From NCBI GenBank assembly GCA_963675785.1, contig OY776562.1:2368001-2432000 (forward strand): a DNA stretch of 64,000 nt, read 5' to 3'. The notes under the pieces were generated by a model. The model had not been told where the DNA came from. It worked only from the letters and a program-made list of their open reading frames with translations, and did not search any database. A program made the position numbers and the translations under genes. This document shows positions 19,494 to 49,630 of the stretch, piece after piece. The stretch is from Anaerolineae bacterium. GTDB taxonomy: Bacteria; Chloroflexota; Anaerolineae; UBA1429. Every line of letters starts with the position of its first letter. The first letter of the stretch is position 1.

Positions 19494-21335
19494 TCAGTCA
19501 GCGCTCTCACCAGCCATGAGCAGATCGTACAGCGCGTCGGCAGTGAAATACCCGGTGTTGGCAAAAACCAAGGTCATGGGGTGATCATAAACATCATAGC
19601 TCTCGTCAGCACGCCCGATGACCAAGCCGTTCTGACGCTCTTGTTCAATCAGTTCAGGCAAAGCCAAGTCCGTGCCCGTAAAAGTATCGTTGATCAGGTC
19701 AAGGCCGAATAAGGATGGGTAGCTTGATGCAGTATAGACGAGTTCATAGCCCAACTGTTCCGCAAAAAGCTGCTGATAGTAATTCGTAGTCAGCGGATAG
19801 CGCTCGGGCAGACGCGTGATGGTGGCATATAGGCGCTGGCTGGACAAGATCACATAGTCGGCGGAGGCCAGCTTTTCGGCCAATTCGGCCATTTTTTCTT
19901 CCGAATCCACGCCATAGGAATCAAAGCTGATCCATTGCACCCATTTGGTTGTGTCCCAGCCATCCACTCGCGTGACGGGCAAATTGTCATCCCAGGTCTC
20001 GCAGATCACTATTGATCCACGGGGCGCATCCTCTGAGAACCACAGCGAGGTTTGCACCCAGGTATGGGGCTCGTCATAAATGCCCAGATAGGCACAAGTA
20101 TAGAGGCCGCTGCCACTCAAAACGAGAACCAGCAGTGCACCACCTGCCGTATGCCAATGACCACGTTGCTTTAGGCAACGCTCGATGAGCATGGCTGCCC
20201 AGATAGACCACACGGGAAAGATGGGTAGCATATAACGCAAAAATCGCGCCTGCATCCTGCCAATGATGGCGAAATAGATGAGCGTCCAAGCAAAGAGGAT
20301 GATCGTGCCAACCTCAAAGGTGTGTTCACGGCGCCAGTCGCGCAGAGCCGCAATCGCCTCTCCGATACCGCCAACAAGGGCTGCCAGCCCCAGGGCTATC
20401 CCTGTCGACCAGACTACCGCCTGCTGTAACTGATACCAATAGGCGGTGGTACCCAAGAACTGGCGCGTATAGGGCACATCGATCAAGCCGCTGGCCATGC
20501 CGGATTCAAAAGTGACGTCGATGATAAAGGCGCCAATATCGATCAGGGCATAGGGTTCGATGATGAGAAAGATGACTATGCCAACGAGGACGGTCATTGC
20601 TGACAAGGAAATAGCCTGCCAAAGCCGCAGCCAAAAGCGATTTCCGGTTCCTTCAATAGACGCCAGGAAAAAACCAAGAAAGATGCAAACGCCAATGGGA
20701 GCCGCCGAAAGCTTGGTGGCCATAGTCATGCCCAAAACAACGCCAATCAACGCAGCCCGCTTAGCGGAGGGAGCTTCTGACGCCCAGAGGATGAGATAAA
20801 AGAGGAGTACAAGAAAAGTGGTGAGCAATGTATCCACAGTATAGAAATGGGCCAGCTGTACGTGGAGCACCGTCAGTGCCGTCAGTGCCGCAGCAATGAG
20901 GCCCACATTGGCGCTCCTTAGCTTTTTACCCAACACGTACACCCAAAAGACAGTCAGTGTGTCCGCCAAAGCCGAGATGATCCGCCCTACGAGATAGGGC
21001 TCGACCTCATAGTTGAACCATGCGCCGATGGGCGTTATCACATCAATGGCAATACGTAGCAAATAAACGGGCAGCGAGCCGTAGGAGAAGAAATCAGGGT
21101 TCCAGGGACTGTCCGCGCTCAGAAGGAGCTGCAAGTCCAGTGGCCAGGGGAAAGAGAGGTCATCCACCACCATGAGCAATTGGCGCTCATCTGGGTGAAA
21201 CTGGAGGCCATTATCCCAGTTGACGCCGTAGAGACGCACACACAGGGCACACACCAAAATGGCAGCCAGGGCCCATTTTTGCCAGTAGGCCGCTGGCTGG
21301 TCCTTTGCGTAGGAACGTGTCGCTTTGTCAGTCAC
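19494..21335 (-). CDS. PMT/ArnT-like GT-C glycosyltransferase; stand-alone paralog of the N-terminal module of the 2349-aa protein
   Basis: [40 protein letters not shown] each match module A; GTG start overlaps the lepA stop (GTGA). Confidence 0.85.
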
Positions 21336-23152
21336 GACTCGTCAAGAGAGAGAACGGCCATAAACGCCTCTTGCGGGATTTCGACCTTGCCGATGCGCTT
21401 GAGCCGACGCTTGCCGGCTTTTTGTTTCTCCAAAAGCTTGCGCTTGCGGGTAATGTCGCCACCATAGCACTTGGCCAGCACATCTTTGCGCGTGGCCGAT
21501 ACTGTAGAGCGAGCAATGATTCGCGAGCCAATAGCCGCCTGAATGGGCACGGCAAAAAGCTGCTGTGGTATAACTGCCTTGAGCCTCCGCACAAGCAAAC
21601 TCCCCTTGTTATAAGCCATCTCGCGGTGCACAATCATCGAGAGTGCATCCACTGGCTCACTGTTGACCAGCACATCCATCTTGACCAGATCGCTGGTGCG
21701 ATAGCCACCAAAGACATAATCCATGGAGGCGTATCCGCGTGATCGTGATTTGAGCTGATCATGAAAATCGATAATGATTTCGGACAAGGGGATATCAAAA
21801 GTCATTAGTACACGAAGTTCATCGAGAAACTCCATCTCGCCAAACTCGCCACGACGATTGGTAGCCAGCTCCATTAGCGGCCCAATATATTCCTTGGGCG
21901 AAAAGATAGAGAGCTTCATCCAGGGCTCACGGATTTCGTCAATCTCGCTGGCATCCGGCAGTTCAGCAGGGTTATCGATTTCGATCAATTCACCACTCGT
22001 GCGCAGCACCTGGTATTCTACACTCGGTGCAGTGGCCAACAGGTCAAGATCATATTCACGCTCCAGGCGCTCCTGCACAATCTCCATATGCAGTAACCCC
22101 AAAAAGCCGCAACGAAAACCAAGGTTCAGCGCCACCGATGATTCCGGCTGAAAGACTAGCGAGGCATCGTTGAGCTGCAACTTTTCGAGCGAGTCGCGCA
22201 GATCCTGATAGTCGTCGTTTTCAATGGGATAGAGACCGGCATAGACCATCGGCTTGGCCGGCTTGAAGCCAGGGAGCGGCTCATGGGCAGGATTTGCCGC
22301 CAAAGTGATGGTATCGCCAACGCGGCACTCTCGCACGTTCTTTAGGCCCGTGGCAATATATCCCACCTCGCCAGCGTGCAACGCATCCACCTTGCGCATA
22401 TCTGGCGAGAACACGCCCACCTCCATGGGTTCGATCTCAACTTGCGTCGACATGATCAAACCGAGGTCATCGGCCGTATACACACCGCTGATAACGCGCA
22501 CATAGGCTATCACGCCGCGATACGAATCATAGTGGGAATCAAAGACCAGTGCGCGCATGGGTTCGTCATCAACAAGCACGGGGGGCTTGATGCGCTGCAC
22601 AATGGCCTCCAGTACCGCCTCGACGCCCATCCCGGATTTTGCCGAAACCTGAAGTGCATCCTCGGCTGGAATGCCGAAAAGCTCTTCAATCTCTTCGGCA
22701 ACCTCGTCTGGCCGTGCAGAAGGCAGGTCGATTTTGTTGACCACCGGGATGATATCAAGATCGTGCTCCAGCGCCAGATAGAGGTTGGCCAGAGTCTGCG
22801 CCTCAACGCCCTGGGTTGCATCCACCACCAGAATCGCGCCTTCACAAGCCGAGAGAGCGTGCGAGACTTCATAGGAAAAATCGACATGCCCTGGCGTATC
22901 GATCAAGTTCAATTCGTATTGTTGGCCGTCGCTGGCATCATAAAACATACGGACTGCCTTGCTCTTGATCGTAATACCCTTTTCGCGCTCCAGGTCCATG
23001 CGGTCGAGAACCTGCTCTGACATGTCGCGTTCGGCAATGGTGCCCGTTAGCTGCAGCAGGCGGTCTGACAATGTAGATTTACCGTGATCGATGTGCGCAA
23101 TGATACAGAAATTGCGTATCCGTCCGGTCGTTCCAAATTCATTCGCGGTCAT
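21332..23152 (-). CDS. lepA: Translation elongation factor 4 (LepA)
   Basis: [25 protein letters not shown]-terminal [18 protein letters not shown]. Confidence 0.98.
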
Positions 23153-46472: not shown

Positions 46473-48572
46473 TTACCGATACTGGCTGATCGGACCACCC
46501 AAGATGCGTTCCACCACGTCATCGGGGGCAGGTTCATAATGATCAAACTCCATTGTAAATGCCCCACGCCCCTGAGTTGAAGATCGTATATCCGTTGCGT
46601 AACCAAACATCCCAGATAGAGGGACAAATCCATCAATGGCTTGCGTTTCGCCCGGTTGTGGCTGCATCGCCACGATCTCGCCTCGCCTACTGGTGAGATC
46701 CCCGATTACATCGCCCGTGTTCTCAGCGGGCACCGTAATCTCGACCTTCATAACAGGCTCCATCAAAGTAGGCATACCCTTACGAAGTGCCTGCTGAAAA
46801 GCCAGGGAAGCGGCTCGATAAAACGCTGCCTCGGTCGATTCTCCTTCATAAAACGTGCCATCGAGCAATGTAGCGGCGACGTTTACCAACGGATAACCAG
46901 CTAGAATCCCTGAGCTGAGAGAATCTCGCACAGCGTCCTCGACCACCTTGACCATGGTGGGCGGTACAGCCGTCTTGGAAGCTTCATTCGTAAAGATGAA
47001 TTTATCACCACCGGATGAAGGAAACACTTTGAGCACTACACGTGCCGACATGACTTTGGCACCGTGCTGGATGTGACTGTCCTCTTCACCAGTAGCAATC
47101 TTTCTTATCGTCTCTCGATAAGCAACCTGCGGCCGCCCTACTTTGGCATCGACATGGAATTCGCGCCGCACCCGCTCAACGAGAATCTCGAGGTGAAGCT
47201 CACCCATACCCGAGATGATTGTCTGGCCGGTATTCTCATCGATTGAGACCCTAAAAGTTGGGTCCTCTTCAGCAAGAGTTTCCAAAGCGGCAGCCAATTT
47301 TTTCTCGTCTGCTGCACTGCGGGGCTCGATGGCCACACGAATCACAGGCTCTGGGAAGCGGATTGCCTCCAAAAGGACAGGATTACTGGGGTCACACAGG
47401 GTCTCGCCAGTAAAGGTGAACTTGAGTCCGCCTACAGCAGCGATATCGCCTGCGGAGACCATGTCCACATCTTCACGACGCGATGCATAAACGTAGGTAA
47501 GGTGCCCAATGCGTTCTTTGCGAGACTTGATGGGGTTATATGTAGAAGAGTTCGAGGAAAGGGTGCCGGAGTAGACGCGCATGTAGGCTAACCTGCCCAA
47601 AAAGGGGTCCGTCACAATCTTGAAAACGAGCGCTGAAAAAGGCGCATCGGGATCCGCAGCACGCGATACTTTGTCGCCTGTGCGCGGATCCACCCCCATA
47701 ATAGAGGGGACCTCAAGAGGTGAAGGTAAATAGTCTACAATAGCGTCAAGAACCGGCTGTACGCCCTTGTTGCGCAGTGAAGCCCCCGCCAGAACAGGCA
47801 CTAGCCTGCCATCCAGAGTGGCCTTTCGAAGGCCAAAGCGCAATTCCTCAGAACTCAACTCCTCACCATCGAGATACTTGGCAAGAAACTCATCGTCAGT
47901 TTCAGCAACTGCCTCGACGAGCGCCTCACGCACTGCCGACACTTGTTCAACAAGGTCAGCAGGTATCTCGCGTTTCTCCGGGTCCAGTCCCAGCTCATCT
48001 GTCCAGATAAGCGCGACCTGGTCGATAACATCGACCACACCGGAAAAGGAAGCCTCAGCTCCAATAGGCACCTGTATTGCCACAGGTACAGCTTGAAGGC
48101 GATCTCGAATTGTATCAATCGAGCGCCAAAAATCGGCTCCTGTACGGTCCATCTTGTTAATGAAGCAGACACGAGGAACATGAAAACGATCTGCTTGCCG
48201 CCAAACCGTTTCGGATTGCGGCTCTACACCATGAACGGCATCAAATACGACTACGCCCCCATCCAGCACACGCAAGGAACGCTGAACTTCGGCAGTAAAA
48301 TCGATATGGCCGGGTGTATCAATGATGTTAATGCGATGATCACGCCAAAAACATGTTACTGCCGCAGATGCAATCGTGATCCCGCGTTCGCGTTCCTGCT
48401 CCATGAAATCCGTGACAGTCGTACCGTCATCTACGTTACCCAAGCGATGCGTTCGCCCGGTATAAAACAGAATACGCTCAGTTGTTGTCGTTTTGCCCGC
48501 ATCAATATGGGCTATGATCCCAATATTGCGAACACGACCTAGTTCAACGTCCCGGCTCACCACCGTGGTCAT
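46473..48572 (-). CDS. fusA: Elongation factor G (str operon) with divergent domain IV
   Basis: [30 protein letters not shown] conserved; domain IV loops degenerate. Confidence 0.93.
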
Positions 48573-48651: not shown

Positions 48652-49122
48652 CTACCAGCGGAAATGGGCAAACGCCTTGTTCGCTTCAGCCATGCGATGT
48701 GTGTCTTCACGCTTTTTGACTGCTGAACCCGCATTATTAGCAGCATCCAACAGCTCAGCCGCAAGTTTATCAGCAAAAGTTTTGCCGTTGCGACTACGGG
48801 CTGCATTCAACAACCACCTCATCGCCAAAGACGTGCGGCGCTGCGGGCCCACTTCTACAGGCACCTGGTACGTTGCACCACCCACTCGGCGAGGTTTAAC
48901 CTCGATAGTAGGAGCAATGTTATCCATGGCCTGCTCAAAAACATCAATCGATGCCTTACCTGTTCGCTCAGATACCAAGTCAAGCGCATCATAAACGATG
49001 CCGCGAGCCGTGCTCTTTTTGCCATCAACCATTACATTGTTGATAAACTTGGCAAGAAGCTCACTGTTGTACTTGGGATCAGGCGCAACTACCCGGCGTT
49101 CGGGTCGGTAGCGTCTCGGCAT
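48652..49122 (-). CDS. rpsG: 30S ribosomal protein S7
   Basis: [21 protein letters not shown]. Confidence 0.98.
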
Positions 49123-49210: not shown

Positions 49211-49630
49211 CTAACGACGAGGACGTTTTGTTCCGTACTGGGAACGACCACGACCACGACCCTCAACGCCAGCTGCATCCAGCGTACCACGAACGATGTG
49301 ATAGCGAACACCAGGCAAGTCACGGACACGACCACCGCGCACAAGCACCACAGAGTGCTCTTGCAGGTTATGCCCTTCACCGGGGATATAGGCGGTAACT
49401 TCCACACCATTGGACAACCGAACACGGGCAATCTTACGAAGTGCCGAGTTCGGTTTCTTGGGCGTTACCGTGCTTACGCGTGTACATACACCACGTCGCT
49501 GCGGAGCACCTTTTTCCGAACGCGTCACAGTACCCTTTTGGCCGTTGAGGTTATAGCTCAACGCAGGCGCATTGGATTTCTTTGTTGTGCGCTTGCGGCC
49601 CTTTCGCACGAGCTGGTTAATCGTTGGCAA
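49211..49630 (-). CDS. rpsL: 30S ribosomal protein S12
   Basis: [27 protein letters not shown]; TTG start. Confidence 0.98.

Follow-up and report, generated by a model that had tools for sequence, protein, structure and literature searches.

A str-operon elongation factor G with a degenerate domain IV tip in Anaerolineae, and a proposed division of labour with a second EF-G I-like copy

The window analysed here is the whole stretch of 64,000 nucleotides from contig OY776562.1 of an Anaerolineae bacterium (Chloroflexota; positions 2,368,001 to 2,432,000 of the forward strand), and its subject is fusA, the gene of elongation factor G (EF-G) in the str operon. This gene (P0001) occupies 46473..48572 on the minus strand as an open reading frame of 699 amino acids, and its translation is an EF-G I with a degenerate domain IV tip. 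The gene of ribosomal protein S7, rpsG, lies immediately upstream (48652..49122, minus) and, identified from its translation, marks the str context. Further upstream are a frame with an approximate start (49211..49630, minus), which we take to be rpsL (ribosomal protein S12) from the S12-like opening of its translation, and a frame of 1311 amino acids, presumably rpoC. Immediately downstream is tuf (P0002; 45148..46350, minus), whose translation gives an EF-Tu-like match. The rpsL-rpsG-fusA-tuf location is the context criterion of the EFG I subfamily (PMC3150367).

The str EF-G scores 919.7 bits on TIGR00484, the EF-G equivalog model, against a cut-off of 659.4, and all five EF-G Pfam domains (GTP_EFTU, EF-G_D2, EFG_III, EFG_IV and EFG_C) are found above their gathering scores. 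The GTPase motifs are intact: the P-loop, RGITI, DTPGH (with the switch II histidine) and NKMD are all present. Model score, domain content, GTPase motifs and operon location are thus those of EFG I, and the trait of this subfamily that is missing is the conserved domain IV tip (the loop 1 Gly-Gly, GG.IP and the equivalent of E. coli H583). The gene of another translational GTPase in the window, lepA (EF4; 21332-23152, minus; 949.7 bits on TIGR01393), is ordinary.

Domain IV covers residues 481-598 (46779..47132, minus; positions 1-119 of the 121 of the Pfam EFG_IV profile, 96.6 bits). In tip loop 1 (residues 501-510; 47043..47072, minus), which is canonically RQ[ST]GG[RKH]GQ[YF]G, the second conserved glycine is replaced by alanine. 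The second loop, KTAVP (residues 533-537; 46962..46976, minus), has lost both glycines of the canonical GG.[IV]P and retains the proline. The loop bearing the H583 equivalent reads GTFYEGEST (residues 572-580; 46833..46859, minus) in place of GS[YF]HEVDSS, with histidine changed to tyrosine, valine to glycine and aspartate to glutamate, and with Ser-Thr-Glu retained at the equivalents of E. coli 587-589. Altogether, 7 of the 18 scored canonical tip residues are retained. The tip is near-invariant in the 139 canonical EF-G I sequences described below, the histidine and the first loop 1 glycine being present in 139/139 and the second glycine in 137/139. The alignment places no insertions or deletions in the three loops, which have canonical length and differ by substitutions only; the fold of domain IV appears to be kept, with the change confined to tip residues. 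An earlier note, made from the letters of the window, had pointed to three divergent strings at 46800-47100 in a protein with intact GTPase motifs, and both the strings and the motifs are present in the translation. It had also called the three loops lost, which holds for the conserved residues that are replaced, and not for the loops themselves: these are not deleted, and their length, the Ser-Thr-Glu and the proline of loop 2 are kept.

The source genome (G000) is a single contig of 3.22 Mb with a marker-gene completeness of 94.8% and contains three genes of the EF-G family, i.e. the str fusA and two further full-length genes, so that the str copy is not the only EF-G. The first of these, a second EF-G I-like gene that we call alt-A (G000:C1:838853-840925), encodes 690 amino acids, 51% identical to the str copy, with a canonical tip (KQTGGHGQFA, GGAIP and GKFHEVDSS) and canonical GTPase motifs including DTPGH. 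It scores 942.9 bits on TIGR00484, above the str copy. The earlier note had predicted a second EF-G elsewhere in the genome, and alt-A is such a gene; from its tip and GTPase motifs it is predicted to be the separate translocation-competent paralogue that accompanies an EF-G of the recycling class. The other gene (G000:C1:2085989-2088058, minus; L003 1468-3537) encodes 689 amino acids, 37% identical to the str copy, and was assigned to the accessory EFG II subfamily because of its P-loop, GHGSSGKT, and its switch II, DAPGY for DTPGH (histidine to tyrosine); it also has RRGLSV for RGITI, and its domain IV tip is fully canonical. One frr gene, for the ribosome recycling factor (RRF), is found in the usual tsf-pyrH-frr-uppS arrangement.

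The neighbourhood of alt-A (G000:C1:837353-842422; L175 769-1284 and 3692-5070) consists of a CarD-family gene upstream and genes of the small and large subunits of a NiFe-hydrogenase downstream; it offers no translation-related context and no functional hint. A second EF-Tu-like gene is present in the genome at about G000:C1:3076256 (L009). Codon adaptation, calculated with 20 ribosomal-protein genes of the window as reference and ranked against 2379 crude open reading frames, gave indices of 0.753 for the str copy (41st percentile), 0.811 for alt-A (89th) and 0.833 for EFG II (97th). It was dropped as a proxy of expression, since the str-operon tuf reaches only 0.723 (19th percentile) and the index is therefore no guide to expression in this genome. 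Codon bias in the genome is weak, and the ranking is topped by two GroEL-like genes (G000:C1:574339-575976, plus; 2907960-2909606, minus).

For the distribution of the degenerate tip, 121 genomes were drawn evenly from the same GTDB class, and all the EF-G I-like genes that they yielded were retrieved. An S7-adjacent EF-G was recovered in 118 of the 121; G057, G081 and G088, in which only an EFG II-type gene was assembled, were excluded. The S7 gene adjoins the str copy in 118/118 cases. The H583-equivalent histidine is absent from 32 of these str copies and present in 86, and at least one loop 1 glycine is lost in 19 of the 32 (the source genome having Gly-Ala). Of the 32 genomes whose str copy is His-less, 23 have alt-A, 3 have another paralogue, alt-B, and in 6 a second copy was not found; the corresponding figures for the 86 His-keeping genomes are 6, 2 and 78. 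A second EF-G I-like copy thus accompanies 26/32 His-less and 8/86 His-keeping str copies or, counted by copy number, the histidine is lost in 26/34 genomes with a second copy and in 6/84 of the others (Fisher p 1e-13). Two alt-A copies are fragments at the end of a contig. EFG II-type genes occur in 101 of the 121 genomes at E <= 1e-215.

The same state is seen in database proteins. Among the 120 listed for the str query (the query included), 109 are without the loop 1 and His motifs and 11 have both, and the named sources are metagenome-assembled genomes of Anaerolineae or Chloroflexota. For the alt-A query, both motifs are present in every one of the 120 listed proteins, and the named sources among these best 120 matches are all Chloroflexota. 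In a sample of the phylum, 26 further str copies (24 from other classes and 2 from this class) have the histidine without exception. Degeneration of the str EF-G tip is a feature of a clade.

The alt-B paralogue is found in 5/118 genomes: G015 (L067 2001-4064), G026 (L063 2001-4034), G065 (L061), G104 (L065) and G070 (L160). Its identity to the other copies is 45-49%, and it passes TIGR00484 with 801-830 bits. Its loop 1 is YKKQ[ST]GGRGHFAE (YRKQTGGHGHFAV in G070) and the second loop has the unusual form APPxxFP (VPPSELP in G070); the histidine is retained and the GTPase motifs are canonical. Among the genomes of other classes, only G122 (L188) and G134 (L192), members of family f54 in another Chloroflexota class, have a second EF-G, 48% identical to alt-A. 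Theirs are also the only str copies of that sample to drift in loop 2 (ARPEAVPQ and ARPDVVPK) and to read HEEDSS in place of HEVDSS.

Constraint on the str copy was assessed against a canonical set of 139 sequences (the 86 His-keeping str copies, the 26 of the phylum sample and 27 alt-A), in which 235 positions are at least 90% conserved. Only 6 of these positions are retained in 50% or less of the 32 His-less copies, corresponding to residues 507, 533, 575, 577, 578 and 580 of the source-genome protein, and all of them belong to the domain IV tip. The conserved positions are kept in the G domain (113/114), in domain III (29/29) and in domain V (25/25). When the alignment columns of 106 close database homologues are ranked by entropy, the tip positions come out at the 88th-99th percentile, which marks a loss of constraint and not the gain of a new conserved motif. 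Some tip residues persist in the His-less copies, namely the loop 2 proline (31/32), serine at the S587 equivalent (27/32), serine or threonine at that of S588 (27/32) and glutamate at that of E589 (26/32). The pairwise ratio of nonsynonymous to synonymous substitution rates (dN/dS) lies between 0.043 and 0.141 for the tip-less str copies and is lower for the str copy than for alt-A in 6/6 genome pairs computable for both, one further pair being saturated at synonymous sites. Both copies are under purifying selection, and the loss of constraint is specific to the tip. The loss of an invariant histidine and of several glycines could be the mark of a pseudogene in decay, or of an assembly or alignment artefact; this reading was rejected as highly improbable, as the frame has full length, residues outside the tip are conserved, dN/dS is low, and the tip-less state, free of loop indels in the source genome, recurs in 32 genomes and in the 109 listed database proteins.

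The history of the copies was reconstructed with FastTree (LG+gamma) from 186 sequences; the three tip windows were masked, and EFG II served as the root. Alt-A forms a single clade (27/27, support 1.0) within the Chloroflexota EF-G I radiation, and alt-B a separate, deeper one (5/5, support 1.0) that branches between EFG II and EF-G I. His-less str copies are interspersed among His-keeping ones, with separate, well-supported instances in G096 (inside the G054/G008 group), in G029 (beside G025) and, elsewhere, in G026 together with G071. By parsimony, the str tree from FastTree requires at least 10 changes of state and a quick IQ-TREE tree at least 12, and a tree that joins all 32 His-less copies is rejected by the approximately unbiased test (log-likelihood difference 293.4, p 3.7e-6). 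Tip loss has originated more than once in the class.

The three-residue KDG insertion in switch I that marks spdEFG1 (PMC3150367) is absent from both alt-A and alt-B when they are aligned with the str copies. The origin of the pair is likely to be separate from the split that gave the spd and mitochondrial factors, because the copies nest within the phylum and score in the EF-G family, the tree being one of Chloroflexota sequences taken without spd, mitochondrial, E. coli or Pseudomonas references. The same nesting among Chloroflexota EF-G I and the TIGR00484 score argue against a place for the str EF-G in the spdEFG2/mtEFG2 clade. Of the independent subfunctionalisation in this lineage that the earlier note had considered possible, the separate origin is thus likely; the tip decay is class-wide and recurrent, not a single event.

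Alt-A shows a change of its own. Positions were sought that are at least 90% conserved in the 105 str copies from genomes that have no other EF-G I-like copy, that the tip-less copies likewise keep at 90% or more, and that are retained in 50% or less of the 27 alt-A. Six positions were found (37, 416, 440, 450, 453 and 559 in source-genome numbering), and domain III holds 4/6 of them (416, 440, 450 and 453) in comparison to 35/253 of the conserved positions (Fisher p 0.004). Domains III and V of EF-G form the cleft in which domain II of RRF docks, and loops of domain III in EF-G2mt meet the RRF hinge (PMC9067457). The changes in alt-A would fit a loss of RRF-related constraint. Domain III also has roles beyond the contact with RRF.

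These observations suggest an independent division of labour, in which the str copy would serve RRF-dependent ribosome recycling and alt-A translocation; we put the probability of this reading at roughly 0.6. An old duplication of EF-G I within the Chloroflexota would have given rise to alt-A, outside the operon. Selection on the part of the str copy that contacts the decoding centre, i.e. the tip, would then have relaxed, and the tip would have decayed several times independently within the class. The str copy would have ceased to be the main translocase but would still work as a ribosome-dependent GTPase, with binding to the ribosome, GTP hydrolysis and the push on RRF all retained, and most likely it splits post-termination ribosomes together with the single RRF. 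The translocation of tRNA and mRNA would fall to alt-A, whose canonical tip would enter the decoding centre. The biochemical job of each copy is what we infer, the recycling role of the str copy because of mutant data and precedents in other organisms. Translocation by E. coli EF-G is abolished when loop I is deleted and by most single substitutions at the tip, with the RRF-dependent breakdown of polysomes spared, and H583K, S588P and E589A each block translocation and are toxic (PMC4666400).

Several points weigh against a division of labour. In the E. coli study, recycling is reported to be impaired only by deletions in the H583-bearing loop and by S588P (PMC4666400), so that this loop is not entirely dispensable for recycling there; in the Anaerolineae copies its length and the S587, S588 and E589 equivalents are mostly kept, and those of H583, V585 and D586 are gone. 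Neither alt-A nor alt-B was found in 6/32 genomes with a His-less str copy. In four of these (G010, G056, G061 and G071; L205-L208) the tip-less str copy is accompanied only by an EFG II, whose tip is canonical and whose switch II reads D.PGY. The other EF-G of G119 (92% complete) is likewise only an EFG II with D.PGY, and both congeners of this genome carry alt-A. No other gene with an EFG_IV domain was found in G101 (94% complete), whose tip-less copy lies at G101:C53:21710-23758. Codon adaptation gives no usable signal of expression. The co-occurrence of the second copy and tip loss is, moreover, strongly confounded by shared ancestry: independent pairs on supported branches number 8, of which 2-3 go in the predicted direction, 5-6 do not differ and 0 go in the opposite direction (1 for a small number of the 200 pairings; median p 0.25, underpowered), and the raw contrast of 26/34 and 6/84 is therefore not independent evidence.

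Finally, the canonical str tip is kept in 8 genomes despite a second copy. Coexistence is hence possible without divided roles, and both copies might do both jobs, the str copy being slower or less accurate and the drift of its tip being buffered by alt-A. The high variability of the tip, with no new conservation, and the tip-less copy that stands alone in G101 point the same way. We nevertheless consider such redundancy without specialisation unlikely. H583K, S588P or E589A alone suffices to abolish translocation in E. coli, with toxic effect (PMC4666400), purifying selection on the str copy is at least as strong as that on alt-A, which argues for a retained essential job, and the domain III losses of alt-A would not be expected were it keeping all the functions.

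The conservation of everything except the decoding-centre tip fits any ribosomal GTPase task that is independent of the tip, and the str copy could in principle have taken up a role other than recycling, acting on other ribosome states, for instance in the splitting of hibernating or stalled ribosomes or in subunit maturation. Eukaryotic EF-2-like factors without the tip do such work. In S. aureus, RRF and EF-G are reported to split hibernating 100S ribosomes as well (PMC7196661). Such a new role is less likely still than redundancy: the str copy shows no new conserved tip motif and no new domain, its operon position is unchanged in 118/118 genomes, and no recycling factor would be left if both it and alt-A had abandoned recycling.

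The division between recycling and translocation can also be stated more broadly. Across much of the Anaerolineae, str fusA may have been reduced, repeatedly and independently, to a tip-less GTPase that serves recycling only, matched by a reciprocal loss in the partner's domain III, a ratchet of duplication, degeneration and complementation, and EFG II may be the translocase in G010, G056, G061 and G071. We offer this wider version tentatively, as somewhat short of an even chance. If EFG II does translocate in genomes without alt-A, then either a tip-less EF-G or one without the switch II histidine can drive elongation. To our knowledge, neither has been described. It is in the genomes that combine a tip-less EF-G with a His-less EFG II that the identity of the translocase comes into question.

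The partition of EF-G jobs between paralogues is already known from mitochondria, spirochaetes and P. aeruginosa. We found no description of a tip-degenerate EF-G in Chloroflexota in the literature searched, subscription journals lying outside its coverage. New with respect to this literature are the independent EF-G I pair within the phylum, the wholesale decay of the operon-copy tip including its histidine, the recurrence of this decay within one class, and the matching domain III change in the partner. The str copy has been assumed to stay a stable dual-function factor after duplication (PMC3150367); contrary to this, it is here the str copy itself that loses its most conserved functional element, several times independently. 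As EF-G is a universal marker gene, annotation or modelling of Chloroflexota translation from str fusA alone is risky. The 32 genomes of the class sample and the 109 listed database proteins also constitute a natural mutagenesis series, with varied tips on an otherwise intact EF-G, which bears on the debate over the share of the domain IV tip in ribosome splitting as against translocation (PMC4666400, in opposition to the "negligible effect" view cited in PMC8203779).

In one of the closest known systems, that of P. aeruginosa, translocation is the work of EF-G1B, encoded outside the str operon and 75-fold more active in poly(U) translation than the str-operon EF-G1A, which has a functional interaction with RRF (Palmer et al. 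2013, PMC3832671). Both are pairs of the EF-G I type, with the same roles proposed for the str and the non-str copy. The Pseudomonas proteins are, however, 84% identical, and the differences reported in domain IV are only moderate (a 5-residue insert and the C-terminal helix; PMC3832671), whereas the Anaerolineae copies, 51% identical, stem from an old, class-wide duplication, and the invariant tip residues of the str copy have been lost in a recurrent decay. The recycling-only EF-G2mt of humans and EF-G2 of Borrelia burgdorferi are each without one loop 1 glycine (PMC8203779). The str copy resembles them in its altered loop 1 Gly-Gly (Gly-Ala in the source genome) and, by our proposal, in sharing the jobs with a paralogue; its degeneration goes further and takes in the histidine, valine and aspartate as well as the second loop. 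The mtEFG and spdEFG subfamilies occur without EF-G I (PMC3150367); unlike those pairs, both Anaerolineae copies are EF-G I-like and nested in the Chloroflexota, and alt-A is without the spdEFG1 insertion.

EFG II, a widespread accessory EF-G that includes EF-G-2 of T. thermophilus and EF-G2 of M. smegmatis (Margus et al. 2011, PMC3150367), shows the opposite state to the str copy, with the tip kept and the GTPase diverged where the str copy has an intact GTPase and a degenerate tip. The E. coli tip mutants (deletion of loop I, H583K and others; Zhang et al. 2015, PMC4666400) can be regarded as laboratory equivalents of this natural state. In each of these a single, toxic change was made in an EF-G that has no paralogue and serves both functions, whereas the Anaerolineae str copies carry many fixed changes beside a canonical paralogue.

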